Shown here: piece by piece, positions 6,580 to 62,207 of the stretch | How the letters are laid out: each line of letters starts with the position of its first letter | Numbering within the stretch: the stretch's first letter is position 1 | Assembly (NCBI GenBank): GCA_046757965.1 | Contig: JBHHZI010000001.1 | Span: forward strand, 25,112 to 89,111 | Source: Acidobacteriota bacterium | GTDB lineage: Bacteria; Acidobacteriota; Polarisedimenticolia; SMYD01 | Direction of reading: 5' to 3' | Length of the DNA: 64,000 nt | Translations under genes and position numbers: made by a program | Notes under the pieces: generated by a model | What the model was told of the DNA's origin: nothing | Database searches by the model: none | What the model saw: only the letters and a program-made list of their open reading frames with translations

Positions 6580-8589
6580 ATGATGGGCGGTATCTCCTGC
6601 CTGTACTCCGGCGGGGCGGTCCGGACCGCCGCCGGCGTCCAGCAAAGGCCGGGCGTGACCGTGACCAGAGGTTTTCGCAAGAACATCGAGGATCTGCTCG
6701 AGGAATGGCGTCCGCCCGGCGGCATGGCCGCCTTGCTTCTCGAGCATCCAACCGCGGGAGTCTACTTCCCGCTGGCGGTCCAGCCAGCCGCCGAGAACAC
6801 CGACTATTACTCGATGCCGGTGCGATTTCGCGATGGCTGCGACACCAGCCTGCAGCTCGATGAGACTTCTTCGCCGGAACGGCTCGCGTTTCGCGGCCGG
6901 CTCGAGTTGACACGGCCCGATCTGCGATTGCCGGTGAGGCAGGAACTGGTGCCGCTTCACCAGGATGGGGACGGCGGGCTGAAGGTTCTCCTCCTGCGCT
7001 CGTCACCGGGGACGATGCCGGACATGGAGCCGCGAAACCTGAACACCCTGAAGAATCTGGTTCCCCTGACCTGTCTGAACTGGGTGGAACAGGCGCAGAG
7101 ATCGATCGAGATCCCGGAGTTCTCGAGCTTCGAGGAGCTCGCGCAGGACCTGGTCAAGCGGCTCAGCGACGTGGAGCAGGACCCCCCCTATTTCCCCATC
7201 CTGCATGCCGAGGTGACGCCGGACGCTGAGGCTCTCGGCGCCCGTTTCTCCAGCGCCAACCTGCTGAGCTGGAACTGTTACCTCCTCGACGATCAGCGGA
7301 GCATGCCGGCCTACATCCCGCAGATGCCCACCGTGATGGGGGAAAAGAAGATTCACGAGTGGTGGGAGGATGTCACACGGCGGGCCGACGCCTCGAGCAT
7401 GACCGAATCGATCCGGAAGGCCGCCGCCAAGACCATCGATCATGTCCGGCTGATCGGCCGATGCGACCATGATGGCGTGGCGTGGTGGGCGTTTGCCCGC
7501 CACAACAAGGATCGCCGGGAGATGACAGGGCTGCTGTGTGAATGGTCCGAGGGGGAATCGATCCTCTCGGCCGCCGAGGCCTGGAGGGACGTCGACCCGA
7601 TCACGCCCGGTGACCTCGTGCGCCGGGCGCTGGCCGTGCGATCGGATGAAGATGACGTCCTGGTGACGATGTGGCTGGTCAGCGACACGGGCCAGGGCAT
7701 CAATATCGGGTTCAAGGCGGGCAACCGCATCGAGGTTCTCGATCACGCCGAGATGGGCGGCGCGGATCAGGTGGAGATCACGGAGTTCGTTCCGTTCTGT
7801 GTGCGGCTGTCCCCGTTGCCGCTGGTCGACAGGCAGGTCATCGAGGACCGGGTCCGGCCGGTCCTTGCCAGCGCAGCGCGCGCGGCACGACGCATCGACG
7901 GGTCGGGCCTGATCGAGAGCGCCTTCGAGCCGGTTCGCAGGGAGCTGCACGAGGGCTCATGGCATGACGCCTACCCGGGCAGTGGCCTGTTCGTGGACCG
8001 ATTTCATGACGTGGCCGACTGGACCGACGAGGACGTGAAGCGATGCCATGAACGGATGGTCGTGCTTCTCGACGGATTGCTGACCGCCTGGACCGGCAAC
8101 GCGAACCCGCTGAGCCGCAACCGTTGCGAGACACGCTTCGACTGCTGGCACATTCGCGCCCTCAAGGCTCTGGCTCATGACCGTCTGCACTCCAGCCTGG
8201 TGATGGCGGTTCTCTCCGGACCGGTGTCGGACGCGTCGTACCTGCTGGCCGACCGGGAGATATGCCCCGGCGGCAACGTACGCTGGTCAGACCTCCTGGC
8301 GGCGCTGACGACGGTCACGACCGAGGGCAATCGCTTCCGGCTGAAGCAATGGCACCACGGCGCAAGATGCACGCTGATCCTGCGGTTCTCCGGCCAGCTC
8401 AACCCCCAGGGTGTCACCGCCGCACTGACCGGAGAGGGCGCGCAAGAACGACAGGGCAGCTTCACGCGTGCCTGTGAAACCCTGCGTCGCGCGGCGCGAC
8501 GGTTCGGCGTGGAGATCGATCACGACGGAGACGAAGACGAACGATGGAGCCTCGTCGTCGTTCTGGCCGAGAGCGAGCTTGCCTGCTAA
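6580..8589 (+). CDS. Large uncharacterized protein (669 aa) immediately downstream of the cysteine desulfurase
   Basis: Long ORF with high GC3. GAGGAG lies just upstream of ATGATG. No motif I can name. TAA stop. Confidence 0.6.
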   Translation: MMGGISCLYSGGAVRTAAGVQQRPGVTVTRGFRKNIEDLLEEWRPPGGMAALLLEHPTAGVYFPLAVQPAAENTDYYSMPVRFRDGCDTSLQLDETSSPERLAFRGRLELTRPDLRLPVRQELVPLHQDGDGGLKVLLLRSSPGTMPDMEPRNLNTLKNLVPLTCLNWVEQAQRSIEIPEFSSFEELAQDLVKRLSDVEQDPPYFPILHAEVTPDAEALGARFSSANLLSWNCYLLDDQRSMPAYIPQMPTVMGEKKIHEWWEDVTRRADASSMTESIRKAAAKTIDHVRLIGRCDHDGVAWWAFARHNKDRREMTGLLCEWSEGESILSAAEAWRDVDPITPGDLVRRALAVRSDEDDVLVTMWLVSDTGQGINIGFKAGNRIEVLDHAEMGGADQVEITEFVPFCVRLSPLPLVDRQVIEDRVRPVLASAARAARRIDGSGLIESAFEPVRRELHEGSWHDAYPGSGLFVDRFHDVADWTDEDVKRCHERMVVLLDGLLTAWTGNANPLSRNRCETRFDCWHIRALKALAHDRLHSSLVMAVLSGPVSDASYLLADREICPGGNVRWSDLLAALTTVTTEGNRFRLKQWHHGARCTLILRFSGQLNPQGVTAALTGEGAQERQGSFTRACETLRRAARRFGVEIDHDGDEDERWSLVVVLAESELAC

Positions 8590-8670
8590 GAGTCGAACGC
8601 ACGGGCCATGCCGCGGCTCCGGCCACGGCGGCGCGGTCGCCGGACCATGCGCTCGCGGGACCGCCACGGG

Positions 8671-9501
8671 ATGAGTGCCTCGAGCTGGTCGCTTTACCTG
8701 TTCGACCCCGAGGACCGGGCCTACCGCAGGCCCTGGGCGTCGATGCTGCCGGCTCCGTTTCACGAGGTCACCATCGTGGATTCTTTCTTCCAGAGGAGCG
8801 GGGGCAGGGCTCGCGACGGTGTCGTCGTCGTCCACGCCTCGCGCCTGCCTGACGAGAAGCGACGCGGCGATCTGGTCAGCAACGCCAGACAGATGAATCT
8901 TCACCTGGTTCTCATCTCTGGTGGGCATCAGTCAGAGCCGGCGCGTGACAACTGGGTCTATTTCCGCCGCCGCCCGGTTCGCATGCGCGACATCGACGAG
9001 GAGTTTGTCGACTGCTTCGCCCGCTTCTGGCACCATCTTCGGTCCACCGATGAGTTCCGCTTCGAGCTTCTCGAACCGGCGCGAGACATGGTCCGGGTGC
9101 TGGTCGTGCTCTGCCAGGGCTATCTTCTCGCCCACGTGCGGCGCGACCCGCTGCGCCTCGAACTGCCGGGGGAGTCTCACGCGGTGTGTGACCAGGGGCT
9201 CGCAGCGTTGAACCGTCTCGGGCTCGACACGGCCCTGGCGACCCCCCCGGCGCCGGATAGCGTCTCCGAGCTGCTCGAGGAGGAGATGGGAGAGCTCGTG
9301 GACTCCGCCGACTGGTGGTCACCGGTCGATGTGCCGCGGCTTCGCCACGAGCTGGCGACTCTCGACATGAACGATGTGAACGTCCGGCGTCTTGTCGCCG
9401 GAATCGACGCGGAACTCTCCGTTGCTCCGGCCGTGGTGGTCGCGGCGTACTGCGTGCTCGAACAACACCTGCGCGCGAGTCTCCGGCCGCAGAGGGCCTG
9501 A
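8671..9501 (+). CDS. Uncharacterized protein (about 276 aa) in the same apparent operon
   Basis: ORF in the same orientation 80 nt after the preceding gene. Start ambiguous between 8608, 8647 and 8671. No recognizable motif. Confidence 0.5.
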   Translation: MSASSWSLYLFDPEDRAYRRPWASMLPAPFHEVTIVDSFFQRSGGRARDGVVVVHASRLPDEKRRGDLVSNARQMNLHLVLISGGHQSEPARDNWVYFRRRPVRMRDIDEEFVDCFARFWHHLRSTDEFRFELLEPARDMVRVLVVLCQGYLLAHVRRDPLRLELPGESHAVCDQGLAALNRLGLDTALATPPAPDSVSELLEEEMGELVDSADWWSPVDVPRLRHELATLDMNDVNVRRLVAGIDAELSVAPAVVVAAYCVLEQHLRASLRPQRA

Positions 9502-13567: not shown

Positions 13568-15496
13568 ATGACCCTCACTCCGGATCTCATCATGGCGCTG
13601 GCAGCGCTGGCCATCGTGGCCCTGGCGGCCGACAAGGTCGGGGCCTTCTTCGGCCGGCTGCGACTCCCTCTGATCACCGGTTTTCTGTTCACCGGTGTCC
13701 TGGCCGGGCCACACGGTCTCGATCTGATCCGCAGCTCCGCGATCGGTCATCTCCATGTCGTCAGCGAGACGACCATCGCCTTCATCGCGTTCGCCGCCGG
13801 CTCGGAACTGGATCTCGGCGACCTCAAGCACCGGTTGAGAAGCATCCGCTGGGTGTCCACGGGGCTGGTCGTGGTCACCTTCAGCAGCACGGTTGTCGCG
13901 ACGCTGCTGGTAGCGGACGCTCTGCCGTTTGCCCGCGCGCTGCCGGCCACCGAGCGGTGGGCCGTGGCACTCCTCGCCGGCGCCGTTCTCGTGGCGCGTT
14001 CTCCGTCGTCCGCCATCGCGGTGGTGAACGAGCTGCGGGCGCGGGGCCCGTTCACCGGCATGGTGCTGGGCGTCACCGTCGTCATGGACGCGGTGGTCAT
14101 CGTCCTCTTCGCCGCCAGCTCGTCAATGGCCGACGCCTTGCTCGCCGGACAGGCGTTCGATCTCCAGGTCCCCCTGCTTGTGCTGGGCGAGATCGTGGTC
14201 TCTCTCGGGCTGGGGTTCCTGCTCGGCAAGGTCCTGCCGTCGCTGGTGGGCGGGTCGCGCCATCAGACGGTTCGTGCGGGTCTCCTTCTGGCCACGGGTC
14301 TTCTGAACTTTTCCGGGGCCGATCTGGTCCGGACCCTCAGTCGCGCTCGACTGTCGGTGGACATCCTCATCGAACCGTTGCTGGTCTGCATGGTGGCGGC
14401 GTTCGTGTCCACGAACTTCACATCGCACACCGGCAGGGTCCGGGAGGTCGTCGAGTCCGCCGGACCGACCGTGTAGGTGGTCTTCTTCACGCTGGCAGGG
14501 GCATCACTGGATATCGGCGTTCTGGCAGGAACCTGGCAGGTCGCCCTGATCCTGTTCGGCGTCCGGCTCGCATCCATCGTCGTGGGGTCGGCGGTGGGTG
14601 GCATGCTGGCCGGGGACCCCGCCCGCTTCAATCGCGTCGGCTGGATGAGCTTCGTCACCCAGGCGGGCATCGGGCTTGGACTGGCGGAGGAGATCGCTGG
14701 CGAGTTCCCGACCTGGGGCGGCTCCCTCTCGGCCGTCATCGTCGCCATCATCGTCATGAACCAGGTTGTCGGGCCTCCCCTGTTCAAGTGGGCCCTGCAC
14801 CTGGTCGGAGAGGCCCGCTCTGTCGACGACGTCGCCCGCGACCGCGACCTCTCCCGGGCGGTGATCGTGGGGTGGGACGCGCAGGCCATCGCCGTGGCCC
14901 GGCAGCTCACCGTCCACGGCTGGGAGGTCGCTGTCGCCTCTCGCAAGGTCAACGCGGAAGAGGCAGTGCCAGGTTCTCCGGCCACACTCACACCGCTGTC
15001 GGACCTGACCACCGAGGGTCTGCGCGCTGCCGGCGCGGACCGTGCAGACACCCTCGTGGGTCTGCTCACGGACGAGGAAAACACGCACCTCGTGGAGATG
15101 GCGCGGGCCTCGTTCCCGTCGGCTCACCTGGTCGTGCAGATCCATGATCGAGACCGGGCCGCGACCCTGGCAGGTGATGGTGTGGTGGTCATCGACCCGG
15201 AGACGGCCATCGTGAATCTACTGGACCACCTGGTGCGCACGCCGGCAGCGACCTCGCTCCTGCTCGGTGAGGACCCGGGGCAGGACGTCACGGATCTGCA
15301 GGTCGGCAACGTCGCGCTCCGGGGCGTGGCGGTGCGCGATCTTCATCTTCCGCTGGACATCCGGGTGCTCTCGATCCAGCGCCGCGGCGCCCGCCTCATT
15401 TCCCATGGACACACCCGGCTCGCCGTCGGAGATCAGGTCACCGTGGTCGGGAGTGCGGCGAGTCTGCGCGAGGTGGCGTTCCTGTTCGAGTCCTGA
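13568..15496 (+). CDS. Monovalent cation:proton antiporter (CPA2/Kef-type) with RCK_N and RCK_C (TrkA) domains; the single reading frame is interrupted by an in-frame TAG at 14474-14476
   Basis: The two ORF-track pieces 13568..14476 and 14477..15496 are in the same frame, separated only by TAG. The sequence is continuous across it, PTV-TAG-VVFFTLAGASLDIG, which matches the conserved Kef motif LLLGLFFIAVGMSIDFG. The C-terminal half has RCK domains. Confidence 0.75.
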
Positions 15497-17646: not shown

Positions 17647-17850
17647 ATGGCACAAGGCACGGTGAAGTGGTTCAACGATGCAAAGGGATTCGGTTTCATC
17701 AGCCTGGATGATGGTTCCAGCGATGTGTTCGTGCACCACTCGGCCATCCAGATGGACGGCTTCAAGACCCTGGCCGAGGGCCAGAAGGTCGAGTTCGACG
17801 TGGTCGACGGCCCGAAGGGGCCTGCGGCGGAGAACGTCCGTCCGATCTGA
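17647..17850 (+). CDS. cspA: Cold-shock protein CspA family
   Basis: [18 protein letters not shown] ... VFVHHSAI ... [10 protein letters not shown], with RNP1/RNP2 motifs. A roughly 270-nt upstream untranslated region is typical of csp genes. Confidence 0.95.
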
Positions 17851-17979: not shown

Positions 17980-18237
17980 TCAGGGCGTGATCAAACCGCC
18001 GGTCCGGAAAGCGCTCGTGTCCCCGTCCATCTGCGAGCCCACGGATGTGCCACACGAGGCGCAACGGTATTCGAACTTGTTGCCACCCGGCAGGACGAGC
18101 AAGAGGCGCTTGCGCACCGGGCGGGAAGACTTGCAGCGAGGACAGTACAGTTCGCTGGCTTCCAGCGAGCGGTAGGACGACGGATCGCGCGGCTGCATTG
18201 TTCTCTCCATCTCGACAGACTCCAGGCCGGTCTCCAT
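17980..18237 (-). CDS. Small zinc-ribbon protein (85 aa) with two CxxC pairs (YCPRCKSS ... YRCASCGT)
   Basis: Minus-strand ORF with GGAGG 10 nt upstream of ATG and plausible high GC3. It lies in the gap between cspA and the kinase gene. It overlaps only a non-homologous 5' extension of the plus-strand kinase ORF. Confidence 0.5.
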   Translation of the reverse strand: METGLESVEMERTMQPRDPSSYRSLEASELYCPRCKSSRPVRKRLLLVLPGGNKFEYRCASCGTSVGSQMDGDTSAFRTGGLITP

Positions 18238-18402
18238 TATGACACGGCCTCCCGGTGTCCGGACCCACCCCGGGGCCACACGTCCCCGGCGGCCAGCCAC
18301 CATCGCCGCCGCGCCATGAGTGCCCGGATGGACACGGGGGATGTAGAATGCTCGCGCCCGACGGGATGCAGTGACGCGACCCGGTCGAGGGGGGGCTTTC
18401 CG

Positions 18403-20583
18403 GTGACCCTGTCGAATGGACCCCGGCTCGGACCGTACGAGATCATCGCCCCGGCCGGAGCCGGCGGCATGGGAGAGGTGTACCGGGCGCGGGATACCCG
18501 GCTGGCGCGCGACGTGGCCATCAAGGTGCTGCCGGAACACCTTTCCGACCATCCCGACCTGCGTGCCCGCTTCGAGCGTGAGGCACGCGCCGTCTCCTCG
18601 CTGAACCATCCGCACATCTGTACGCTCCACGACATCGGCCACGAGGACGGCATCGACTACCTGGTGATGGAGTACCTCGAGGGACAGAGTCTGGCTGCCC
18701 GTCTCGAGACCGGGGGCCCACTGCAGGGCGATGAGCTGCTCGGCATCGCCACGCAGATCGCCGAGGCCCTGGACACCGCTCACCGTCAGGGACTCGTTCA
18801 CCGGGACCTGAAGCCGGGCAACATCATGCTCACCCCGTCGGGCGCCAAGGTGCTGGACTTCGGCCTGGCCAAGATGGCCGCGTCCGGCCCGACAGCCGGC
18901 GACAGGACGGCGATCCTGCCGTTGACCTCCGCACCGACGGTGGCCGGAAGAGAGGCCGCCGGGACACCGTCGCCGCTGACCGCCGCCGGGACGATTCTGG
19001 GCACGTTTCAGTACATGGCGCCGGAGCAGATCGAGGGGAAGGAAGCCGACGTCCGCAGCGATATCTTCGCGTACGGTGCCACCCTCTACGAGATGGCCAC
19101 GGGCCAGCGCCCCTTCCAGGGCGAGACCCAGGCCTCGCTCATCGCCTCGATCCTCAAGGATGATCCCCGATCCATCGCGTCATCCCGGTCGCGCGCTCCC
19201 GGCGGACTGGATCGCCTCGTCCGCAACTGCCTGGCCAAGAATCCGGCTGACCGGCGTCAGACCATGCGCGACGTGCTGCTCGATCTCCGCGCTCTCGCGG
19301 ATGCGGACGACGCCGGCCACACTCCGGACGCCGGGCATCCATCCAGCACTCGCGCCGCCGTTACCTCGCGGTCGGCCAGGGGGGCCTGGGCGGTCGCCAC
19401 CCTGGCCCTCGCCGTGGCCGCACTCACTGCCGTGGCCTGGTGGACCGGCCGGCCGGCGCCGCTCGCCCCGGCCGCGGTGATCCGCTCCTCCGTCGAGGCG
19501 CCTGACGGCATGACGTTCCAGTTCGAAGGCCCCAACGCCGGCGCGGTCACCGTGTCACCAGACGGACGTTTTCTGACCTTTTCCGCCACCAGCACCGATG
19601 GCATCCGGCGACTCTAGCTGCGCCGCCTGGACAAGATGGAGGCAACAGCCATTCCCGAGTCCGACAACGGCCAGTACCCGTTCTGGTCCCCAGATTCACG
19701 CTTCATCGCCTTCTTCGCGTCCGGCAAGCTGAAGAAGGTCTCGACCACCGGCGGCCAGGTGATCACGCTCTGTCGGGCGGCCAACGCACGCGGCGGAACG
19801 TGGGGATCCGCGGGCACCATCCTGTTCACGCCCCATTGGCGGCGCCAGCCGATCTTCCGGGTTCCCGCCGACGGCGGCGAGCCGGTGGCCGTGACGCAGC
19901 TCGACGCGACCCGCAACGAGACGACCCATCGCTGGCCGTGGTTTCTGCCGGACGGCCGCCATTTTCTGTTCCTGGCCGGCAGCCACATCGTCAAGTCGAC
20001 CAGCGGCGACAACGCCATCTATCTGGGTTCCCTGGACTCCGACGAGACCCGTCTGCTGTTTCGGGCTCGCTCCGCCGCGGTCTTCGCCGCCGGCCAGATC
20101 CTGTTCTCACGCGGCGGGTCGCTGGTGGCCCGGCCGTTCGAACCGGACCGTCTGGCGTTCACCGGCGACGAACGCACTCTCGTCACCGGCGTGCAGTACG
20201 AGCGTACCTACTTCCAGGGTGTGTTCGGGGTCTCCGCCGCCGGCCTCCTGGCGTACCATGCCGGCAACACACGGACGGTGAGTAATCTGGTCTGGATGGA
20301 CCGCGACGGCGGCATCACTCCCCGCTGGGCGAATGGCGGCAACGAGTTGTTTTTCATCGCGCCGGATCACACGCTCATGGAGGTGGGCGTCTCCTTCACA
20401 CCCGAGCTGACTCTGGAGGCACCTCGACCCCTGTTCGATTCGGAGGTGCGCATCGACGACACAGCGTGCTACGACGTGACCCCCGACGGCAAGCGTTTTC
20501 TCATCAACCGCCTGCCCGCGAATCAGGGTGCCGCCTCGATCACACTCATCAGCGGATGGACCTCGCTGCTACCCGTGGAATGA
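18403..20583 (+). CDS. Ser/Thr protein kinase with a TM segment and a C-terminal TolB-like (PD40/WD40 beta-propeller) domain; interrupted by an in-frame TAG at 19615-19617
   Basis: Kinase motifs are GPYEII..GAGGMGEVY, VAIK, HRDLKPGNIM, DFG and APE. ORF pieces 17911..19617 and 19636..20583 are in the same frame. The sequence is continuous as DGIRRL-TAG-LRRLDKMEATAIPESDNGQYPFWSPDSRFIAFFASGKLKK. This matches the conserved RLW/YLRPLD ... PFWSPDGR ... GKLKK motif of kinase-TolB fusions. Start proposed at GTG 18403 (GAGGGGG upstream). Confidence 0.8.
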
Positions 20584-21881
20584 AGCCGACGGCGCCCCGG
20601 CCCCGGTCGCCCTGGCTGACACGCAACGTCGTCGGTCTGGGGCTGGCCAGCCTGTTCAACGATGTCTCGTCCGAGATGGTGGTGCCGCTGCTGCCTTTCT
20701 TTCTGACGTCGGTTCTCGGCGTGGGGCCGCTGGCCCTGGGCTGGATCGAGGGTGGCGCCGACGCTGTCGCCAGCCTGCTGAAGCTGCTCTCCGGACGGGT
20801 GGCGGACCGTCTCGGGCGTCACCGCCCGCTGGTTCTTGCCGGCTACGCCGTGTCGGTGCTGGCCCGGCCGTTCGTCGCTACCACGACGACGGCCGCCCAG
20901 GTGCTCGGCGTGCGCCTGGTCGATCGCGCCGGCAAGGGCGTGCGAACCAGTCCGCGGGACGCCCTGCTCGCGCGGTCGGTCAAGCCGGCACGACGCGGCA
21001 GCGCCTTCGGATTCCACCGGGCGATGGATCATGCGGGCGCGGTGATCGGGCCCCTGATCGCCTTCTCGCTCCTGTCGGCGGGCGGCATGGCCGTGCGATC
21101 CATCTTCTGGTGGTGCGCGCTGCCCGGACTGCTGGCCGTGGTCTGTCTCGCCGTGTTCGTCCGAGACCGGCCCGCCCGTCTCGACGACACCGATGACACG
21201 CGGCCGACATCTGACGGGCTCCCTCGTGCGGACTCCGAACGCGCACTCACGCCGGCGGGCGAGACCGCCCCGGCTGCGCCGGCTGTCCCGTCGACGTGGC
21301 GGCCGCCGGTCGGGCTGGGCATCCTGCTGGTCCCTCTGGGCCTGTTCAGCCTGGGAAACGCCAGCGATCTGTTTCTCCTGCTGAAGGCCAGCGAGTCCCG
21401 TTCTCCACTGATGACCCTGCCGCTGCTGTGGATGGCGTTCCACGTGGTCAAGTCGGTCTCGTCGGTCATCGGTGGGCGACTCGCTGACCGGTTCGGCCGG
21501 CGGCGCCTCATCGTCTCGGGATGGCTGGTCTACGCCGCGGTCTACGCCGGGTTCGCGCTGACGACGCAGATCGCCATGGTGTGCGCCCTTTTCATCGTCT
21601 ATGGCCTCTACCACGGTCTGACCGAGGGAGCGGAGAAGGCCCTGATCGCCGATCTCGCCCCGGCGACACGTCACGGAGCCGCGTTTGGCTGGTACCACGT
21701 CACTCTCGGAGCTGGAGCCCTGGCGGCGAGTGTGCTGTTCGGCGGCCTCTGGCAGGGGTTCGGAAGCGCCACGGCCTTTGCCGCAAGCAGCGGCCTGGCG
21801 CTGGCGGCCGCCGCATGGCTCGGCTTCTCCCCGCGCCACACGATCCGGTCCGGCCCGATGGACTCACCCGGCCTCGGTTGA
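20580..21881 (+). CDS. MFS transporter
   Basis: Twelve predicted hydrophobic helices, glycine-rich loops, D/R motifs. The start ATG overlaps the kinase-TolB TGA stop (ATGA). Confidence 0.85.
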   Translation: MKPTAPRPRSPWLTRNVVGLGLASLFNDVSSEMVVPLLPFFLTSVLGVGPLALGWIEGGADAVASLLKLLSGRVADRLGRHRPLVLAGYAVSVLARPFVATTTTAAQVLGVRLVDRAGKGVRTSPRDALLARSVKPARRGSAFGFHRAMDHAGAVIGPLIAFSLLSAGGMAVRSIFWWCALPGLLAVVCLAVFVRDRPARLDDTDDTRPTSDGLPRADSERALTPAGETAPAAPAVPSTWRPPVGLGILLVPLGLFSLGNASDLFLLLKASESRSPLMTLPLLWMAFHVVKSVSSVIGGRLADRFGRRRLIVSGWLVYAAVYAGFALTTQIAMVCALFIVYGLYHGLTEGAEKALIADLAPATRHGAAFGWYHVTLGAGALAASVLFGGLWQGFGSATAFAASSGLALAAAAWLGFSPRHTIRSGPMDSPGLG

Positions 21882-27504: not shown

Positions 27505-27653
27505 GGACGCTCTCCTCGCATTGGATGTCGATGTCTTGTGCCGGGCGGGTCATTCTAGCAGGCGGAGCCGTGCGCGGGACCTGACCGTGCGCCTTGCGGC
27601 ACAGATGGGAGCTCACGGTCTGGAAGCGACCACGGCGCCCTGAGGCAGATCGA

Positions 27654-28636: not shown

Positions 28637-28701
28637 CCTTCCGGGACCCCGTCGCGGGTCACCCGGTCGAGGCGACCCTCACCCATCGGGGATCATCGTT
28701 C

Positions 28702-33213: not shown

Positions 33214-33390
33214 CTGGGTCATCTGCCCCGTCACGGCGTGCGTCCCGATTTCCGGAACCTGAATCCCGAGAGGTTCGTGCGCGCCGTGTGATAAGGCGTC
33301 GGGGGCAACGGCGTCCTTCATATCAGAACCGCGCCGGCAGAGTGACCCGGGCAATGCGGCCCGCAGGCTGTGGGATATCTTGGGGGGATC

Positions 33391-36300
33391 ATGAAGAAGA
33401 GCCTGTACCTCTGTGTATTCCTCGCGAGCGGTGTCATCGCGACCGCCGCCGAGATTCCGTTCTATGATGCCCGGGCGATCGCCCGGGGACTCACCGATCC
33501 ATCGAAGATATTCCTTGCTGACCTGGATGGCGACGGCCGTGCTGACCTGCTCTCCGCCTCCTTCGGAGACGAGATCGTCGCCTGGTCGCGCAACCTGGGC
33601 AAGGACTCCGCCGGCCAGACGCTGTTCGGGTCCCGGCAGACCATCGCCGCGGCCCCGGCTGTCTTCAGTCCCACCGGCGTCCTTGCGATCGATGTCGATG
33701 GGGATGGCGACCTCGACGTGCTGTCGTCCTCGTTTGCCGACGCGAAGATCGCCTGGTACGAGAATCTCGGCACTGGAAACTTCGGCGACCCCGCCACCAA
33801 CCAGAAGGTCATCTCCACCGGCGCCATCGGCGCCTTCGCCGTCTCGGCCGCCGACATCGATGGCGACGGGGACGTTGACGTTCTCTCCGCCTCCCAGAGC
33901 GACTCGCGCATCGTCTGGTACGAGAACAGCGGCGCGCCGGCAGCACCGGGCGAGTGGACGTTTCACGACGTGTCCACCGCCGCCATGGCGGCACGCCAGG
34001 TGATCGCGGCGGACCTCGATGCCGACGGCGATCTGGATCTGCTGTCGGCGTCGGTGTTCGGCAACCCCATCGCCTGGTACGAGAACCTCGGTGGTGGCGT
34101 CTTCGGCGACGCCGCCACCAATCAGAGGGTGATCTCGTCGACCGTGCTGAGCGGGCGCGCGGCTGTCGCCGGCGACGTGGACGGTGACGGGGATCTCGAT
34201 CCGATCTCCGCCTCGTGCGTCGACAACACCGTGGCCTGGTACGAGAACAGCGGCTCCACCACCACCGGCATCTGGAACCAGCGCGTCGTCTCGAGCACCG
34301 CCGCCTGTCCCGAGTCGGTCTTTGCGGCTGATCTGGATCAAGACGGCGATATCGACATCCTCTCGGCCTCGTCGGGTGGCACGCTGAACTGGTTCGAGAA
34401 TGTCAATGGCCTCGGCATGTTCGCCACCGCCCGGCCCCTGGCAAGCGCCTTCGGCGGCATCGATGCCCGCGCCGGCGACATGGACGGCGACGGCGACCTC
34501 GATGTGGTGGGTGCGACGGCTCTCACCGGTGAGATCGCCTGGTTCGAGAACCGCACCATCCACGGCAACAGCACCTTCGCGCCCGCGTCCATCATCGATT
34601 CCGCCGTCGACGTCACGGCGGTGGTGGCGGCCGACCTCGACCGGGACGGCAGTCCCGACGCGGTGGCCGGCAGCGGGGCCGATGGATCCCTGGCCTGGTG
34701 GCACAACGACGAGCAGGGCCTCTTCTCGCAGATCGCCCGGGACATCTCGCTCAACTCGCCCGGCACGGAGGCGATCGTGGCAGCCGACCTGGACGGCGAC
34801 GGCGATCTCGATGTGGCGTCGGCTACGACGAGCAGCGGCTCCCGCCTCGCCTGGCACCGGAACCTGGGCGCCGGTGACTTCGGTGCGGATTCGATCATCG
34901 ATGCCTCCGGCGTCAATTACAGGACCATCGACTCAGGCGACATCGATGGCGACGGGGATCTCGATCTGCTGGCCGGCGGCAACTTCAACGAAGGCTCCAC
35001 ACCCGGCGTGCTGACCTGGCTCGAGAATACCGACGGGAACGGCACGTTCTCCGCCCGGCCGAACATTCCCACGGGAATCGTCGAGAGCATCGCCTCCGTT
35101 CATCTGGCAGACCTGGACGGTGACGGCGACCTGGACATCATCACCGGAGGAGTCACGTCGGCGCTTGGCAGCGTCGACTGGTTCGCCAACGACGGCGCCG
35201 GGAACTTCTCACCCGCCGCGGGCATCGACACCACGAGCGATCCGATCGCATCGGTCACGACCACCGATGTGGACGGCGACGGCGACCGGGACGTCGTGGC
35301 CGGCCGGTCCTTTGCCGTGTCATGGTACGAGAACGTGGATGGTCACGCAGGAGCGTTCGGACCGGCCCGGAGCATCACGGCCAGTGTCAAGTCGGTCCGC
35401 TCCGTGTTCGCCGCCGATGTGGATCGGGACGGCGATGCCGATGTTCTCGCCGCGTCGTCCGATGACAACCTCCTCTCCTGGTACGAGAACCTCAACGGCG
35501 CCGGAAACTTCGGCCCACAGCAGACCGTCGATGCCGACTCCGTCGGCGCCCGCTCCATCGTCACGGCAGACATCGACAGCGACGGGGACCTCGACGTGCT
35601 GTCCGCTTCTCCCCTGGGATTGGCGCTGGCCTGGTCGGAGAATCGTGGCGGCCAGTACAGTTTCTCGGGTTCCGACCTGGCCCCGGCGCGCGCACCGTCG
35701 GGGCAGGTGATCCCGCTGCTGTCCCTGACGGCGACGTTGCATGCCCGTCCGGGAGACTCCCCGGGTGAGGTCACCTCACTCGCCCTGCTCTTCGAGCAGG
35801 CGCCGGGTGTCCCGCTGACCACCGAGGAGGCCAACGGTCTCATCGATGCCCTGCGGGTTTACCGCGACACCGGCTCGGGCATGTTCGAGGCGGGCGACGA
35901 CCTCGTCGTGACCACGGTCCAGACACTCGCCCTCGGCGGCGGGGTCCAGACCGTCCTGTTCGGCGATGGAGATGCTCTCGCCCGGCTGGCGGCCCCCGCA
36001 ACCTTCTTCGTGGTCGCCGAGCTGTCGCACGCCTCCTTTGACCTGATTCCCGACCACTTCCGCGTGACCCATCTGGCACCCAGCAGTGTCGTCGAGGACT
36101 TCCGCACCGACCTGCCCCTGGCACCGGCCACACTCGCCAGCATCACCTCGACCATCACCACCGCCTTCCAGCCGCTGGTGGTGACCACCACCGCCGACAG
36201 GGTCGACGACGCCGACGGCGTGTCCAGCCTGCGCGAGGCGGTTCAGGACGCCAACAGCCGTCCCGGGCCCGACCTCATTCTTCTCGGGCCGGGGACGTAC

Positions 36301-39300
36301 ACGCTGAGCATCGCCGGCGCCGGGGAGAATGCGGCGGCGAGTGGAGATCTCGACGTGACGGATTCCTCCGGCACACTCACCATCCAGGGCGCCGGCGCCC
36401 CCTCGCCCATCATCGAGGCCAGCGGCATCGACCGGGTGTTCGAGATCATCGGCGCCAGCCTGACGCTGGAAGGCGTCACCATCACAGGCGGCATGCCGCC
36501 GGAAGGCACCAGTCGGGGCGGCGGCATCGGCCATTTCTGTTGCTCGACCGGCACCACCACGCTCATCAACAGCGTGGTCACCGGCAACACGGCCTCCTTC
36601 TCGGGCGGTGTTGACAACAACAGCCCGAACGGTTCCATCATCGTGCTGAACAGCACGCTGACAGGGAACAGCTCCGGCTTCGGCAGTGCCATGGCGCTGG
36701 CCTTCGGCGCCGTCACCGTGTCCGGCAGCACCATCTCCGGCAACACCGGTTCCGCGGCGGTCGTCATCTCTCAGGATACGATCGGCACCATCGACAGCAG
36801 CACCATCACCGGCAACGATACCGGCCTGTCGAGTTCCTCGTCCACGCCGCTGCGCCTGTCCAACACGGTGGTGGCGGGCAACACCACGGATCTGACGGGT
36901 TCGTTCAACCTCGCCGGCCACAACCTCATCGGCAACCTCGGCGCAGCGGTACTCTCTTCCACCACGGTCACCGACCAGATCGGCGGCGAGGATGGGGGCC
37001 CCGCCATCGACGCTCTCCTCGGGCCGCTGCAGCTCAACAACGGCCCCACGCCGAATCATGCCCTGCTCGCCGGCAGTCCCGCGATCGATGCGGGGAACTG
37101 TTCCGGTCAGACCACCGACCAGCGAGGGGCTCCTCGCCCGGTGGACCTCTCCTCCGTGCCGAACGTGACCGGAGGCGACGGCTGTGATATCGGCGCCATC
37201 GAGGACACCGTCGCGCAGACCCTGACCGTCGTCAACGTTCCGGTCCGCTGGTGCGGGGTCGTCGGTGCGCCGTCGCTGCCGACAACCGCCGCCGCAGCCA
37301 ATGCCGAGCTTCTCTCCCGCAGCGAGGCGGCGACGTCGAACGTCCTGGCTCCCGTTGCCTCGATCCGGGTGCGCTCGGGAGCCACGGCGACCTTCCCCAG
37401 TTTTCCGCTGCTGACCGACCCGGACACCACCATCGGCAATCCCGGCGATGTTGTCGTCGACCCGGCGGCACGCAATTACGACGAAGTCCTGCAGCTCTTC
37501 ACCAGTTGCCGGACAGCCTGGGAGCAGGGAGACCCCTCGGTGGTCGGGATCACGGCCGTCCAGATCAACCAGTTCGTCGACCCGGCCAGGAACGCACTGG
37601 GGCTGCTCGGAGTCGGCGGTCGAGCCGAGCCCCTCAACGCCCCCCAGCAGGCCGTCGCCGGCCGTGTGATGATAGTGGACCCGCAACACCTGGTCGGACT
37701 CACACCCGCCGATTCCATCGAGCGGATCCTGGCCCACGAGTTCGGTCACGCCCTGTCCCTTCCCCACGGCAACGGGATGGACGATGACCTCAATGGCGTT
37801 CTTGACGACAACGACGACCGGTTCCTCGGCCTGCCGCGATTCGACGGGCCGAACCTGATGCACTACCGGACGGGATCCCAGCTCACCGATCTCCAGATCG
37901 GTCAGGCACGCCTGCACGCTGTCTCGACGATCCCCGACACGACGCTGTCGTCGAGCCTCGCGGTGGATGCCGACGACGTGCCGATCGATGAGGGCTTCAT
38001 CGACATCCTCGACTTTGGCTTCATCGATATTCTCGATTTCGGCTTCATCGACATCCTCGACTTCGGCTTCATCGACATCCTCGACTTCGCCATGAACGAG
38101 ACTCTCGATTTCGGCTTCGTCGATATCCTCGACTTTGGCATGTCCATCGGGACGGAAGCCCCGGACGAGACGACCCTGTTCACCTCCACCGGGGGCCTCC
38201 TGTGGCCACAGCCGATCCGGGTGGACTCGTCGTACTACTTCTACCTGGACCTCGACATGAATCCGGCCACGGGCGGCACGCCGTCCGATTTCGGCTTTCC
38301 TGGAGCCGGCGTGGCCGCCCAGACCGGCGTCGATCTCATCGCTCAGGTCGATGTGACGGCAACCGGCCAGACCCTGACCGTCCACCAGTTTGTCGATTCG
38401 ACCACCGGCTTCGTCGTCGTGCCGAACCCGGTGGCGGAACCGACCCGGGTGGAGAACGTGAGCGTCGGCCTGTTCCAGAGAACCGGCGGCGCGGCCGCCG
38501 AGACCGACGACCAGGCCATCGGCATCAACGTGCGGGCCCAGATCAAGAACAGTGTCCTGGAAGGAGCCGGCTGGACGGTCGGCGATCCGCTGACGCTCGA
38601 GACCCTCTCGACCGTGACCTGTTCAGGCATCCTGCCGGCCGGTTTCACCATTGATTGCCAGTGCATGGACTGTGCTGTCTGTCCGGATTTTCCGGGCTGT
38701 GCGGCCACCGGGACGCCCGACACCATCGATCCGGTCGTCGTCACCGACTGCGTCAACGCGGACCTCGACTTCACCCCCCCGCTGCTCCCGGCCTGCTTGG
38801 CCACCCCCGGGGAGATCGTCCCCGGAGGCAGCACCGTGGTCACCGCGAGCCATTTCCCGGCCGGCGCGGGCAACGTCGAGGTCCTGATCGGCTCCACCGT
38901 GCTGGGCAGTTCGCCGGTCGATGGGAGCGGGGATGCCGTCATCCCGGTCACCATTCCCTCCGGCACCACCGGTGGCCCGCTCGTCCTGACGACACGCATC
39001 CCCGGCCTCGCCACGGAGGCCACATGCGGCGTGCAGGTCAGTTCTCAGACGTCGGTCTGCGCGCCGGACCTCCAGGCGCCGTCGGTCAGTGTGACTGACA
39101 GCCTCATCGTGGCCGAGCAGACCACCTGTGGCGGCACGCCGGTCGACGTGCTCACCGCCAGCGGCTTCAGTGCGGATGATCTGTGCGATGGCTCACCGGC
39201 TGTCGCACTCTCGGATGCCGGACCCTATCCACTCGGCGACACCGTGGTCACCATCACCGCAACGGATGCGACCGGCAACAGCGCCGCCATCGACGTCACG

Positions 39301-39954
39301 GTGCGCATCGAGGACACGACGCCACCCGCGCTGTCGGTGCCGGCACCGCTGGTCGTCACCTCCACACAGCTCACGGTCGATGGCATCGGATGCGCGAAGA
39401 TCGACAATCCGGCCATCTCCGCCTGGCTGGCCGGGGCCAGTGCCACCGACGTCTGTGCCACCGGCACGGCCATCGCGCACGATGCACCGGACACCTTCCC
39501 GGTGAACACGACCACGGTGACGTTCACGGCCACCGACCCGTCGGGCAACATGACACAGGCCACGTCGGACGTGCAGGTGGTGTACGAGTTCAGCGGGTTC
39601 GGCAAACCGCTGATGTCGGACGGCTCGGCCTCGGTCAAGCAGGGCAAGAAGGGTCGCACGATACCCGTGAAGTTCGCCCTGAGCTGCGGCGGCACACCCG
39701 TCGCCACCGCTGTGGCGAGCATCGGAGTGTTCCAGATATCGAACGCGGACACCGGCACCGTCGACACCACGGATCTGACGGAGGACTCGGGCACTGCCAA
39801 TGATGGCGGGAATCTCTTCCGTTTCGACCCGAACAATCAGCAGTACATCTTCAACCTCTCCACCACGGGGTTCGCGGCACCGGCCACCTACCGGATCGTG
39901 GTGGGTCTTGACGATGGAACGGAGAAGACGGTGGAGTTCTCGCTGCGGCCCTGA
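33391..39954 (+). CDS. Giant secreted multi-domain protein. It combines FG-GAP/VCBS-type repeats, a parallel beta-helix, a zinc-metalloprotease-like HExxHxxxxxH motif, a GFIDILDF tandem repeat, and C-terminal Ig-like (HYR-like) domains.
   Basis: Signal peptide MKKSLYLCVFLASGVIATAA. More than 12 repeats of DxDGDGDLDxL ... IAWYEN (FG-GAP-like Ca-binding beta-propeller blades). NxxGxxS beta-helix rungs. ILAHEFGHALSLPHG. Conserved Cys-rich segments in the C-terminal third. Confidence 0.85.
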   Translation: MKKSLYLCVFLASGVIATAAEIPFYDARAIARGLTDPSKIFLADLDGDGRADLLSASFGDEIVAWSRNLGKDSAGQTLFGSRQTIAAAPAVFSPTGVLAIDVDGDGDLDVLSSSFADAKIAWYENLGTGNFGDPATNQKVISTGAIGAFAVSAADIDGDGDVDVLSASQSDSRIVWYENSGAPAAPGEWTFHDVSTAAMAARQVIAADLDADGDLDLLSASVFGNPIAWYENLGGGVFGDAATNQRVISSTVLSGRAAVAGDVDGDGDLDPISASCVDNTVAWYENSGSTTTGIWNQRVVSSTAACPESVFAADLDQDGDIDILSASSGGTLNWFENVNGLGMFATARPLASAFGGIDARAGDMDGDGDLDVVGATALTGEIAWFENRTIHGNSTFAPASIIDSAVDVTAVVAADLDRDGSPDAVAGSGADGSLAWWHNDEQGLFSQIARDISLNSPGTEAIVAADLDGDGDLDVASATTSSGSRLAWHRNLGAGDFGADSIIDASGVNYRTIDSGDIDGDGDLDLLAGGNFNEGSTPGVLTWLENTDGNGTFSARPNIPTGIVESIASVHLADLDGDGDLDIITGGVTSALGSVDWFANDGAGNFSPAAGIDTTSDPIASVTTTDVDGDGDRDVVAGRSFAVSWYENVDGHAGAFGPARSITASVKSVRSVFAADVDRDGDADVLAASSDDNLLSWYENLNGAGNFGPQQTVDADSVGARSIVTADIDSDGDLDVLSASPLGLALAWSENRGGQYSFSGSDLAPARAPSGQVIPLLSLTATLHARPGDSPGEVTSLALLFEQAPGVPLTTEEANGLIDALRVYRDTGSGMFEAGDDLVVTTVQTLALGGGVQTVLFGDGDALARLAAPATFFVVAELSHASFDLIPDHFRVTHLAPSSVVEDFRTDLPLAPATLASITSTITTAFQPLVVTTTADRVDDADGVSSLREAVQDANSRPGPDLILLGPGTYTLSIAGAGENAAASGDLDVTDSSGTLTIQGAGAPSPIIEASGIDRVFEIIGASLTLEGVTITGGMPPEGTSRGGGIGHFCCSTGTTTLINSVVTGNTASFSGGVDNNSPNGSIIVLNSTLTGNSSGFGSAMALAFGAVTVSGSTISGNTGSAAVVISQDTIGTIDSSTITGNDTGLSSSSSTPLRLSNTVVAGNTTDLTGSFNLAGHNLIGNLGAAVLSSTTVTDQIGGEDGGPAIDALLGPLQLNNGPTPNHALLAGSPAIDAGNCSGQTTDQRGAPRPVDLSSVPNVTGGDGCDIGAIEDTVAQTLTVVNVPVRWCGVVGAPSLPTTAAAANAELLSRSEAATSNVLAPVASIRVRSGATATFPSFPLLTDPDTTIGNPGDVVVDPAARNYDEVLQLFTSCRTAWEQGDPSVVGITAVQINQFVDPARNALGLLGVGGRAEPLNAPQQAVAGRVMIVDPQHLVGLTPADSIERILAHEFGHALSLPHGNGMDDDLNGVLDDNDDRFLGLPRFDGPNLMHYRTGSQLTDLQIGQARLHAVSTIPDTTLSSSLAVDADDVPIDEGFIDILDFGFIDILDFGFIDILDFGFIDILDFAMNETLDFGFVDILDFGMSIGTEAPDETTLFTSTGGLLWPQPIRVDSSYYFYLDLDMNPATGGTPSDFGFPGAGVAAQTGVDLIAQVDVTATGQTLTVHQFVDSTTGFVVVPNPVAEPTRVENVSVGLFQRTGGAAAETDDQAIGINVRAQIKNSVLEGAGWTVGDPLTLETLSTVTCSGILPAGFTIDCQCMDCAVCPDFPGCAATGTPDTIDPVVVTDCVNADLDFTPPLLPACLATPGEIVPGGSTVVTASHFPAGAGNVEVLIGSTVLGSSPVDGSGDAVIPVTIPSGTTGGPLVLTTRIPGLATEATCGVQVSSQTSVCAPDLQAPSVSVTDSLIVAEQTTCGGTPVDVLTASGFSADDLCDGSPAVALSDAGPYPLGDTVVTITATDATGNSAAIDVTVRIEDTTPPALSVPAPLVVTSTQLTVDGIGCAKIDNPAISAWLAGASATDVCATGTAIAHDAPDTFPVNTTTVTFTATDPSGNMTQATSDVQVVYEFSGFGKPLMSDGSASVKQGKKGRTIPVKFALSCGGTPVATAVASIGVFQISNADTGTVDTTDLTEDSGTANDGGNLFRFDPNNQQYIFNLSTTGFAAPATYRIVVGLDDGTEKTVEFSLRP
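37993..38136 (+). repeat. Near-perfect 24-nt tandem repeat (6 units) encoding GFIDILDF x4 plus two variant units
   Basis: The unit ggcttcatcgacatcctcgacttt is repeated head-to-tail with only synonymous third-position changes. It lies inside the giant gene just downstream of the HExxH motif. Confidence 0.8.
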
Positions 39955-40049: not shown

Positions 40050-42662
40050 GTGACGCAAGACGACACCCGGAACACGCCGCGGCCATCCACACCCGCCGGT
40101 TCCAGTCATGATGACGCGGCGTCGTCCGGTGACCCGACGAGGGGACCCGGTCGCGGCGACGGTCAAGATCCCATCCGGTCGGCCGGGGACAAGGCGATGG
40201 GGATTCCCGCTCCCGGCGGTCCGGACGCTGCTGAGCCAGACCCCTCCAGCCAGCGCCGCGAACTCGAGGACCAGGAGACCGTCCTGCGCACGCAGCGCTC
40301 CGTGTCGGCGGGAAACACGCCGGCAGGCGTGGCGGGCCCGGAGGACGAGGAGACCTTGCTGGCCATTTCGCCGCCGGCCGGCCAGGCCCCGAGGTCAACG
40401 GGCGACCTCGAGGCCGGCCATGTGATCGGCCGCTACCACCTGCTCCAGAAGATCGGCGAGGGGGGAATGGGCGATGTCTGGGAGGCCGACCAACACGAAC
40501 CGGTCCGCCGCCGGGTCGCCTTGAAGCTCATCAAGCAGGGCATGGATACCCGGCAGGTCGTGGCGCGCTTCGAGAGCGAACGGCAGGCCCTGGCCGTGAT
40601 GGACCATCCCTTCATCGCCCAGGTGTTCGATGCCGGCAGCACCGACAGGGGCCGCCCGTACTTCGTGATGGAGTACGTGAAGGGAGTGCCGATCTCCGAG
40701 TACTGCGACCGCCGACGACTGGACACACGCGCCCGCCTGGCCCTGTTCATGCAGGTCTGCGAGGGTGTCCAGCACGCGCATCACAAGGCGATCATTCACC
40801 GGGATCTGAAGCCGTCGAACATCCTGATCGCCCTGCACGGTGACAAGGCGACCCCGAAGATCATCGACTTCGGCGTGGCCAAGGCCACATCCAGGCCGCT
40901 GACCGACAGCACCATGTTCACGGAGCTGGGCCAGTTCATCGGCACTCCCGAGTACATGAGCCCGGAGCAGGCGGAGATGGGCGGTCAGGACATCGATACC
41001 CGCACCGATGTCTACGCCCTCGGGGCCATCCTCTATGAACTCCTGGTCGGGGCACTGCCGTTCGACGCCGGGCCACTGCGTCGCGCCGGGCTGGACGAGA
41101 TCCGGCGTCACATCATCGACGTGGACCCGCCGACTCCCAGTGCCCGTTTTCCCACCCTCGGAGGCGAGGCCGCCGCCACGTCCGCCCGCAACCGATCCAC
41201 CGACGTCTCGACACTGAGACGCCAGCTCCGCGGCGATCTGGACTGGATCGTCATGAAGGCGATGGAGAAGGACCGGTCGCGTCGTTATGGGTCGCCCATG
41301 GAACTGGCGGCCGACATCGGGCGCTATCTGGCCTCGGAGCCGATCGCCGCCCGCCCACCAAGCACCACCTACCGGATGCAGAAATTCGTGCGCCGCCACA
41401 CCGGCGCCGTCGCGGCTGCCGGCACCCTGGCGAGTCTCCTGGTGGCGTTCGCCGTCGTCATGGCCGTCCAGGCGGGTCGGATCGCGGCAGAGCGGGACCG
41501 CGCCAACCAGGAGGCGGCAGCCGCCACCCGGGTCTCGAGTTTTCTCACCGGCCTGTTCAGGGTCTCCGACCCCGGCGAGGCGCGTGGCAACAGCATCACA
41601 GCTCGCGAGATCCTCGACCAGGGAGCAGACAGCATTCACAAGACGCTCGCCGACCAGCCGGCCATCCAGGCTCGCCTCATGGACACCATGGGTGAGGTGT
41701 ACCGCAACCTGGGACTGTACGCTCCCGCCACGCCACTGCTGAGTGACGCGCTTCAGACACGGCGTCATCTTCTGGGCGATGACCACCCGGACGTTCTGCG
41801 CTCGATGCAGCAGCTCGGCATCCTCTACTACCAGCAGGGACGCTTTGACGAGGCAGAGCCACTCCTGGCCGACGCCCTGGCCAAGCGACGCCGGGTTCTT
41901 GGCCCGGAGGATCCCGACACGCTGGACTCCATGAACAGCCTGGCCAATCTGTACCTCCGGTCACGCCGCACGGAGGAGGCCGAGCCGCTCTATGTGACGG
42001 CCCTGGCCGCCCAGCGGCGCATTCTGGATGATGACGATCCGGCAACACTCAAGACGATGAACAACCTCGCCGCGCTGTACAAGCGGACCAGGCAGTTTGA
42101 ACTTGCCGAACCGCTGGCTCGTGACGCCCTTGCGTCCCGACGGCGCGTACTGGGCGACGATCACCCCAGCACGCTCAACGCCCTGCAGAACCTCGCCGTC
42201 ATCAATACATTCGAGGGCGATTTCGACCAGGCGGAACCACTGTTCGAGGAAGCGCTGGCCACACGCCGGCGGGTGCTGGGTGAGGAACATCCCGAGACCC
42301 TGCTGCAGATGAACAATCTGGCCGAGTTCTACCGGATGGCGGGCAAGGCCGAACGGGCCGAGCCGCTGCTGGTCTCGGCACTGGCAACCCAGCGGCGGGT
42401 TCTGGGCAACGATCACCCCAGCACGTTCGCCATGCTGGACACCCTCGCCCATGTCTACATGGACGAGAAACGCTTCGACGCCGCCGAACCGCTGTTCCAG
42501 GAGGCCCTGGAGGGACGGGCCCGCGTCCTGGGGCCCGCCGACCGAAGTACCATCGAATCTCTCAACGCCATGATCGCCCTGTGCGATGCGAAGGGCCACG
42601 AGAAGATGGCCGGGCATTACCGGGAGCGTCTGGCCCGAGCCATGGCAGACCGCGAGAGATGA
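40050..42662 (+). CDS. Ser/Thr protein kinase with a TM segment and C-terminal tetratricopeptide (TPR) repeats
   Basis: Kinase motifs are GEGGMGDVW, VALK, HRDLKPSNIL, DFG and PEYMSPE. One TM helix. Then more than 8 repeats of the LxxLxxLYxxQGRxxEAEPL type. GTG start is provisional. Confidence 0.85.
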   Translation: MTQDDTRNTPRPSTPAGSSHDDAASSGDPTRGPGRGDGQDPIRSAGDKAMGIPAPGGPDAAEPDPSSQRRELEDQETVLRTQRSVSAGNTPAGVAGPEDEETLLAISPPAGQAPRSTGDLEAGHVIGRYHLLQKIGEGGMGDVWEADQHEPVRRRVALKLIKQGMDTRQVVARFESERQALAVMDHPFIAQVFDAGSTDRGRPYFVMEYVKGVPISEYCDRRRLDTRARLALFMQVCEGVQHAHHKAIIHRDLKPSNILIALHGDKATPKIIDFGVAKATSRPLTDSTMFTELGQFIGTPEYMSPEQAEMGGQDIDTRTDVYALGAILYELLVGALPFDAGPLRRAGLDEIRRHIIDVDPPTPSARFPTLGGEAAATSARNRSTDVSTLRRQLRGDLDWIVMKAMEKDRSRRYGSPMELAADIGRYLASEPIAARPPSTTYRMQKFVRRHTGAVAAAGTLASLLVAFAVVMAVQAGRIAAERDRANQEAAAATRVSSFLTGLFRVSDPGEARGNSITAREILDQGADSIHKTLADQPAIQARLMDTMGEVYRNLGLYAPATPLLSDALQTRRHLLGDDHPDVLRSMQQLGILYYQQGRFDEAEPLLADALAKRRRVLGPEDPDTLDSMNSLANLYLRSRRTEEAEPLYVTALAAQRRILDDDDPATLKTMNNLAALYKRTRQFELAEPLARDALASRRRVLGDDHPSTLNALQNLAVINTFEGDFDQAEPLFEEALATRRRVLGEEHPETLLQMNNLAEFYRMAGKAERAEPLLVSALATQRRVLGNDHPSTFAMLDTLAHVYMDEKRFDAAEPLFQEALEGRARVLGPADRSTIESLNAMIALCDAKGHEKMAGHYRERLARAMADRER

Positions 42663-61440: not shown

Positions 61441-61760
61441 TGGTTCACGGCGCAAGTTGACGACGCCGGCCGGATGGGCCTCACTGAATTCCCGGAACGC
61501 CAGGTCCTGCTTTCCGACCGTGCCGACGAGGCCCTCGCCCTCCACGCGCTCCATGACGAGAACAGGCATGCCGGCGTCTTCCTCGACCAAGTGCACGGTG
61601 ACGATGTTCGGATGATTGACGGCGGCGGTCACCCACACGGACAACATCCATTGATTCAGTCACTTGAAGAGCATCAATAGCAAGATTCTGGCGTCTTGAC
61701 TTTCGCCTCGCCCGGGTCGACTTTTTCTTGACGGGGCGGTTCTGCCCCCTGGGGGTAGCC

Positions 61761-62168
61761 ATGCGAAGAGATCCGACCAAAGTGATGCCCGGCTCCCAGG
61801 AGAGCAGGGGATTCCAGCAGTTCCTGACCGGCCACGACGTGAAGCTCGTCCAGGTGTCCGGGGACGCGGCCGGCACGCAGTTCGAGCTCCGCCAGGAGGT
61901 TCAGACGCTCGGTCGCGGAGCGGATGCCGACCTCGTCATCGATACAGAGGCCGCGTCTCGAAAGCACGCCGCCATCGAATTCGCCGGCGGACAGTTCCGC
62001 GTGCGCGATCTCGGCAGCACCAACGGCTTCCTGCTCAACGGCAAGTCGGTGCAGACAGCGAACCTGCAACACGGCGATCAGATCGAGATCGGCGGGCAGG
62101 TTTTCCAGTTCATCTGCGACACCCGGGATGTCGATCCCGAGACCTATCAGATCGACGCGGACGACTGA
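61761..62168 (+). CDS. FHA domain protein
   Basis: LGRGADADLVID ... SRKHAAIEF ... VRDLGSTNGFLLNGKSV, the canonical FHA core. Confidence 0.8.
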   Translation: MRRDPTKVMPGSQESRGFQQFLTGHDVKLVQVSGDAAGTQFELRQEVQTLGRGADADLVIDTEAASRKHAAIEFAGGQFRVRDLGSTNGFLLNGKSVQTANLQHGDQIEIGGQVFQFICDTRDVDPETYQIDADD

Positions 62169-62207
62169 TCCGACAGGTTCCCCCACGAACCGGAACGGCA
62201 AACCAAC

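Follow-up and report, generated by a model that had tools for sequence, protein, structure and literature searches.

The locus described here raises the question of what an amber codon is doing inside a reading frame that runs, in a single phase, from a Ser/Thr protein kinase into a TolB-like propeller. The codon lies in a 64-kb stretch of DNA (64,000 nucleotides, referred to as the window), which has a GC content of approximately 67% and derives from a metagenome-assembled genome (MAG) of an uncultured Acidobacteriota bacterium. About 34 genes were accepted in the window by their three-position GC pattern, about 30 of these being confirmed by Pfam; calling by GC3 alone was dropped, as it yielded many antisense shadow ORFs, and was replaced by the three-position filter together with Pfam. 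The genes include an ORF of 2194 codons with clean coding composition (33370..39954, + strand) and two additional Ser/Thr kinase genes, at 40050..42662 and 61728..63692 (both + strand), one being a kinase-TPR fusion and the other a kinase that follows an FHA-domain gene; kinase paralogy in the genome is high. Two stretches of 1.2-1.5 kb (57839-59400 and 27505-28700) are devoid of a convincing coding signal and gave no Rfam or tRNA matches.

The kinase-PD40 gene and its amber codon

The region around the amber codon comprises the following features:

18212..18240, + strand: sigma-70-like promoter match upstream of the kinase start (9 of 12 positions, a consensus match only)
18403..19614, + strand: 5' part of the kinase-PD40 gene, encoding the Ser/Thr kinase domain, a single transmembrane helix (AWAVATLALAVAALTAVAWW) and blade 1 of the propeller as far as ..DGIRRL
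19615..19617, + strand: in-frame TAG, codon 405, in the same frame as the kinase ORF and the downstream ORF
19618..20583, + strand: 3' part of the kinase-PD40 gene, 966 nt in the same frame, open for 321 codons to TGA 20581-20583
20580..21881, + strand: MFS transporter gene, whose ATG (20580-20582) overlaps TGA 20581-20583 (ATGA); homologs match residues 5-400

A cold-shock protein gene (17647..17850) precedes the kinase gene, and in the interval a 72-aa ORF is found on the opposite strand (17980..18198, - strand), with a zinc-ribbon-like CPRC...CASC pattern and a good Shine-Dalgarno sequence.

The in-frame TAG reported in a preliminary description of this DNA is real, the same frame extending from GTG 18403, with GAGGGGGGG just before it, to the TGA at 20581-20583. 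The upstream ORF contains a Pkinase domain (Pfam, E = 4.9e-48) in which the catalytic motifs HRDLKPGN, DFGLAK (DFG) and APEQ (APE) are present and whose invariant columns are common with those of 119 homologs; it is followed by a linker, one hydrophobic helix and the beginning of a PD40 blade. The hydrophobic stretch, AWAVATLALAVAALTAVAWW, aligns to helix 300-327 in the model of the homolog P0020. In GenBank this 5' part is MFQ5717940.1 (404 aa, 100% identical and the same sequence as P0001), and the region from ATG 19636 onwards (19636..20583) is listed as a protein of its own, MFQ5717941.1 (315 aa), under the name 'TolB family protein'. The 3' part contributes the remainder of propeller 1 and the last two blades of propeller 2, and its TGA overlaps the start of the MFS gene, as had been noted earlier; this ATGA overlap is a translationally coupled arrangement, and no terminator-like site was found from the TAG to position 20580.

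Using the read-through sequence as query we obtained thousands of homologs, the best 119 of which (about 890 aa, 50-56% identity) were compared with it. All 119 are continuous over the junction, so that the objection that the family might normally be split into separate genes at this point fails. Indeed, one tblastn segment of the homolog P0002 crosses the TAG (18403-20310, 55.6% identity over 638 residues, E = 0), and the motifs beside it agree with the family consensus (..GKxxLWVRxLD.. and YPFWSPDSRFIGFFAxGKLKK), as the preliminary description had recognized from the flanks. Its expectation of an aromatic residue exactly at the TAG is likewise borne out, the corresponding column holding W in 115 of the 119 homologs, while the other four have F (two), L and S (one each). 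This Trp is part of a recurring (D)[LI]W blade motif in the consensus; its counterpart in the full-length homolog P0020, W384, is placed by the AlphaFold model (mean pLDDT 86.5) within beta-strand 381-387 of blade 1. The codon at this position is TGG in L083, the only relative checked, which together with the Trp column means that one G-to-A transition (TGG>TAG) explains the kinase TAG. Judged by these alignments, the two ORFs are the halves of one ancestral kinase-PD40 gene of about 890 codons, formerly a single ORF. The MFS protein was compared with 185,579 species genomes, with a best match of 55% identity, and at no locus was a kinase-PD40 gene found upstream, so that this neighbourhood yields no ortholog by synteny.

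A deletion in the propeller ectodomain

The downstream half of the propeller had been described as intact. Its frame is open for 321 codons, yet about 190 aa are absent from it in comparison with every one of the 119 homologs, at the following position:

20305..20313, + strand: in-frame deletion junction, ..VWMDRDG / GITPRW.., with about 190 aa, i.e. four blades of propeller 2, lost

Between VWMDRDG and GITPRW the homologs hold 141-202 further residues (median 188; 119 of 119), and the tblastn alignment breaks off at 20310 (query residue 614), to resume at 20308 (residue 803). The deletion corresponds to residues 615-807 of P0020 and deprives propeller 2 of four of its six blades, about a third of the sensor domain; as 15 of the 44 modelled beta-strands of the ectodomain are thereby removed, propeller 2 cannot close. 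The PD40 score is 30 bits in the window protein versus 90 bits in P0020, whose strongest repeats fall in the deleted part. The AlphaFold model of the downstream product has a mean pLDDT of 85, but values below 50 are found at residues 231-234, exactly at the junction, and the PDB matches retrieved with this product in a fold search are generic propellers only, such as TolB (2ojh) and S9 peptidase. The last 87 residues, after the deletion, retain the conserved positions of the family. The Gly codons at the junction (GAC GGC GGC) suggest microhomology.

The kinase gene thus carries two independent lesions, a stop after codon 404 and the in-frame loss of about 190 codons, and the presence of the second one points to decay. 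The explanation that we favour, and which we regard as reasonably probable, is that the kinase TAG is an ordinary amber nonsense mutation (Trp to stop) in a degenerating kinase-PD40 paralog, one of many. In such a gene translation would end at the TAG, giving a 404-aa membrane-anchored kinase with an extracytoplasmic stub of about 55 residues and no sensor. The 966 nt downstream would be translated weakly at best, by re-initiation at ATG 19636, into a product predicted to have neither signal peptide nor membrane anchor, and the MFS gene, once coupled via the ATGA, would lose most of this coupling, its expression being probably weakened. Both lesions would be recent, because the downstream frame keeps a coding-type composition and family-level conservation.

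A second amber codon and the use of TAG in the window

During tabulation of the stop codons another in-frame TAG was found, about 5.1 kb upstream of the kinase TAG and in an unrelated gene:

13568..15496, + strand: cation/proton antiporter gene (Na_H_Exchanger + TrkA_N + TrkA_C), 642 codons, full length save for one in-frame TAG
14474..14476, + strand: second in-frame TAG, with GTG 14477 directly after; it joins ORFs 13568..14476 and 14477..15496

The read-through antiporter (642 aa) covers 97-100% of homologs of 642-645 aa and has no other lesion. At the TAG column 118 of 120 homologs hold Tyr, one His and one Phe, and two relatives have TAC at this position. The read-through sequence around the codon is ESAGPTV-x-VVFFTLAGASLDIGVLAGTWQVALILFGVR, that of the kinase being GIRRL-x-LRRLDK. 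GenBank splits this gene as well, into MFQ5717935.1 (302 aa) and MFQ5717936.1 (339 aa), so that four 'proteins' of the public annotation are to be corrected to what are really two broken genes. Under the decay explanation, the antiporter TAG would be a second, independent nonsense mutation. Frames with true coding composition in the window contain no TAG beyond these two sites. A TAG-ending ORF at 55385..55660 was rejected as a gene, being the shadow of an opposite-strand 1132-aa gene. Two ORFs in the same frame on the + strand, 6580..8589 (669 aa, TAA) and 8608..9501 (297 aa), were considered as a third interrupted gene and rejected: they read as two proteins, the second with its own start and neither with Pfam matches, and hence were not counted. 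They are separated by a TAA, the only TAA stop of the window, plus 18 nt.

The position of start codons after both TAGs, 0 nt away in the antiporter (GTG 14477) and 18 nt away in the kinase gene (ATG 19636), might be taken to mean that the split is tolerated or even functional, with a 404-aa sensor-less kinase that works, downstream pieces made by termination-reinitiation and antiporter halves that assemble in the membrane. Both downstream frames are undecayed and all four pieces are proteins in the GenBank annotation. We consider this very improbable, as neither restart codon has a convincing Shine-Dalgarno sequence, the PD40 fragment would be made without signal peptide or anchor while blade 1 resides on another polypeptide, and no naturally split homolog occurs among the 119 of the kinase or the 120 of the antiporter.

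Stop codon usage was then considered across the window, in which the approximately 34 genes end with TGA in 33 cases, TAA in one and TAG in none. The TAG share of stops at the loci used for comparison is as follows:

Loci of the nearest homologs of the kinase or the antiporter (four, Acidobacteriota, of similar GC content): 21 of 71
Loci of the nearest relatives by P5C dehydrogenase (three, 75-79% identity): 14 of 35
43 GC-rich loci, same calling heuristic as for the window: 57 of 283 (20%)
14 of these 43 loci, with TAG observed/expected up to 0.31: 8 of 83 (about 10%)

In GC-rich relatives TAG accounts for 10-40% of the stops, the seven loci of Acidobacteriota relatives giving together 35 of 106 (33%), and in the closest available relative (79% P5C dehydrogenase identity) TAG ends 2 of 7 genes; several GC-rich lineages have no TAG end in about 20 genes. 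One Acidobacteriota relative with a GC content of 67%, L084 (GCA_947259925.1, CAMYOG010000006.1), ends 12 of 18 genes with TAG, which indicates that stop usage differs widely inside the phylum. In the window the observed/expected ratios are 0.30 for TA, 0.19 for TAG and 0.04 for CTAG (7 sites), the lowest of 44 GC-rich loci, and this depletion, the strongest of the set, would largely explain the missing TAG terminators. Given the depletion, about 10% of TAG ends would be expected, so that the probability of finding none in 34 is approximately 0.03-0.2 and not 1e-6, as the nearest relatives alone would imply.

The kinase TAG itself makes one of the few CTAG sites of the window, and given the near-absence of this tetranucleotide one would expect a site of this kind to be either short-lived or an artefact. 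The TAG could then stem from an error in consensus calling or assembly, or the MAG could have captured a strain's minority allele that is not fixed in the living genome. In line with this, public data contain the sequence of this MAG contig only once, P0001 and the two antiporter half-proteins each being singletons on a contig of 90,757 bp, and JGI metagenomes gave no matches when searched exactly for the DNA surrounding the TAG with the variable base set to N. The other genes of the window speak otherwise: in about 30 of them, which include ORFs of 2194, 1224 and 1132 codons, there are no frameshifts or cut-off Pfam domains, which indicates a low error rate, and two substitution errors that both make stops would imply many more missense errors. 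Moreover, the 190-aa deletion cannot arise by collapse of identical repeats. An error or a minority allele is an unlikely origin of the codon.

Decay, decoding and known systems

The preliminary description had implied that the TAG is recoded. Such a reading would require a suppressor or reassigned tRNA, most simply a tRNA-Tyr with a CUA anticodon, or a weak or lost release factor 1 with near-cognate Tyr/Trp tRNAs, and we regard it as quite improbable. Both genes would in that case be read to full length, the antiporter regaining its Tyr and the kinase blade receiving Trp or Tyr, an outcome to which we attach an equally low expectation. The points that speak for it are the two in-frame TAGs at near-invariant aromatic columns of two unrelated genes, the otherwise full-length antiporter and the lack of TAG terminators when compared with the 20% and 33% given above. 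In addition, random nonsense changes drawn from the codon usage of the window convert TGG or TAY to TAG in only 0.125-0.16 of the events. On the side of decay, the same model yields TAG in 60% of all nonsense events, which makes TAG the expected product. At columns with a conservation of 95% or more among homologs, the deviations amount to 6 of 147 in the kinase, which is similar to the 5 of 252 in a TAG-free control gene, and to 10 of 123 in the antiporter. In each of the three genes the query is a mild outlier; constraint is not clearly relaxed and, at most, these counts would suggest that the lesions are recent. In E. coli deficient in release factor 1 (RF1), UAG is decoded by near-cognate Gln, Tyr and Trp tRNAs (PMC4333366), which makes a translated TAG at least coherent as a minority hypothesis, and it is the antiporter TAG at an invariant Tyr, together with the absence of TAG terminators, that keeps recoding alive as such.

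The analysis of the window does not support recoding. Within the 64 kb no tRNA was found, and therefore none with a CUA anticodon as had been proposed as a check; tmRNA and release-factor genes were not found either, and the Rfam search matched no family. The in-frame codons of the window comprise 2 TAG in 18,981, against 204 TAC and 79 TAT (and 229 TGG), from which it follows that TAG is not an established sense codon, nor a synonym of the Tyr codons. Different residues are expected at the two sites, W and Y, even if both are aromatic and both near-cognate to UAG. The TA/TAG depletion provides a reason at the DNA level for the few TAG stops, the closest relatives do have TAG stops, and the kinase gene has an independent disabling deletion. 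Programmed stop-codon read-through was rejected, as the RNA fold of the 121 nt at 19600-19720 is not unusual in respect to shuffled sequences (z = 0.03, no unusual structure 3' of the TAG) and the contexts of the two TAGs differ, being CTC TAG CTG in the kinase and GTG TAG GTG in the antiporter. A pyrrolysine system was also rejected, since the window contains neither pylTSBCD nor a tRNA and the affected genes code for a kinase and an antiporter.

Decay of the kinase gene remains our preferred explanation, and it has its own difficulties. Two internal stops in about 34 genes without any frameshifted gene is a high number for a free-living bacterium, and both stops are TAG at near-invariant aromatic codons, a rare class under the random nonsense model above. 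No gene of the window ends with TAG, as compared with 35 of 106 in the loci of the seven relatives; the downstream part of the kinase gene shows no further decay, the antiporter no other lesion, and the deletion is in frame. Taken together, two aromatic-to-TAG events without a single frameshifted gene or TAG terminator would be a somewhat improbable result of independent decay. In-frame stops of pseudogenes are known to mimic a stop-to-Trp reassignment and are a source of false calls (Shulgina and Eddy, PMC8629427). If it is no more than a nonsense allele in a sensor kinase with many paralogs, the kinase TAG is of little importance, and it documents gene decay in a large kinase family. The stakes would be different if this Acidobacteriota lineage, Polarisedimenticolia-like to judge by the names of its P5C dehydrogenase relatives, had given up UAG as a terminator and decoded the few UAG codons present in frame with an aromatic amino acid, most simply with Tyr by way of a tRNA-Tyr(CUA) or of near-cognate decoding once RF1 had weakened or been lost, a proposition that we hold to be quite improbable. 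If true, it would be the first bacterial UAG unassignment or reassignment outside pyrrolysine, at an early stage, and the public code-11 annotation would split genes genome-wide. A free-living, GC-rich bacterium rid of its UAG terminators, in which UAG is tolerated where Tyr and Trp are expected, would be nature's equivalent of the E. coli strains engineered to lack RF1 and would show code evolution at its 'unassigned codon' stage.

Several known systems offer a comparison. In the bacterial UGA reassignments (to Trp in Mycoplasmatales and others, to Gly in Gracilibacteria and Absconditabacteria) and in TAG-recoded phages, in-frame stops occur at conserved positions, as they do here, and the codon is avoided at gene ends, to which the lack of TAG ends among the approximately 34 genes of the window might correspond. 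The bacterial stop-codon reassignments on record all concern UGA (PMC8629427, PMC13462651); unlike these, the codon is here UAG and is extremely rare in frame, at 2 of 18,981 positions. Amber suppression by a supF-type tRNA-Tyr(CUA), or in RF1-deficient E. coli (PMC4333366), is similar in that insertion of Tyr, Trp or Gln at UAG would restore the residues expected at both sites or replace them conservatively; it is a laboratory phenomenon, and the 64 kb contain no suppressor tRNA. Pyrrolysine decoding also has UAG in frame, but the genes concerned here are not methylamine methyltransferase genes, Trp and Tyr are the residues expected, and the window holds no pyl genes or the corresponding tRNA.

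A closer relationship is that with the Acidobacteriota eukaryotic-like Ser/Thr kinases that have a C-terminal PD40/TolB-like double beta-propeller (Tricorn_N / Tricorn_2nd / PD40; about 890 aa). The domain order is the same and the identity amounts to 50-56% over the kinase, the transmembrane helix and propeller 1. In that family one uninterrupted ORF runs through the propeller ectodomain of about 540 aa, unlike in the window gene, where a TAG replaces the blade-1 Trp and about 190 aa are absent, neither of which is seen in the 119 homologs. The kinase gene has, in respect to intact homologs, a premature stop at a sense position, and it resembles the pseudogenes with internal stops in that a single-base change from sense to TAG is found in a recognisable gene, here together with a second lesion. 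What sets the present case apart from typical members of that class is that it comprises two alleles of this kind about 5 kb apart, each at a near-invariant aromatic site, in a window without TAG gene ends, and that the public record shows the two genes as four normal proteins.
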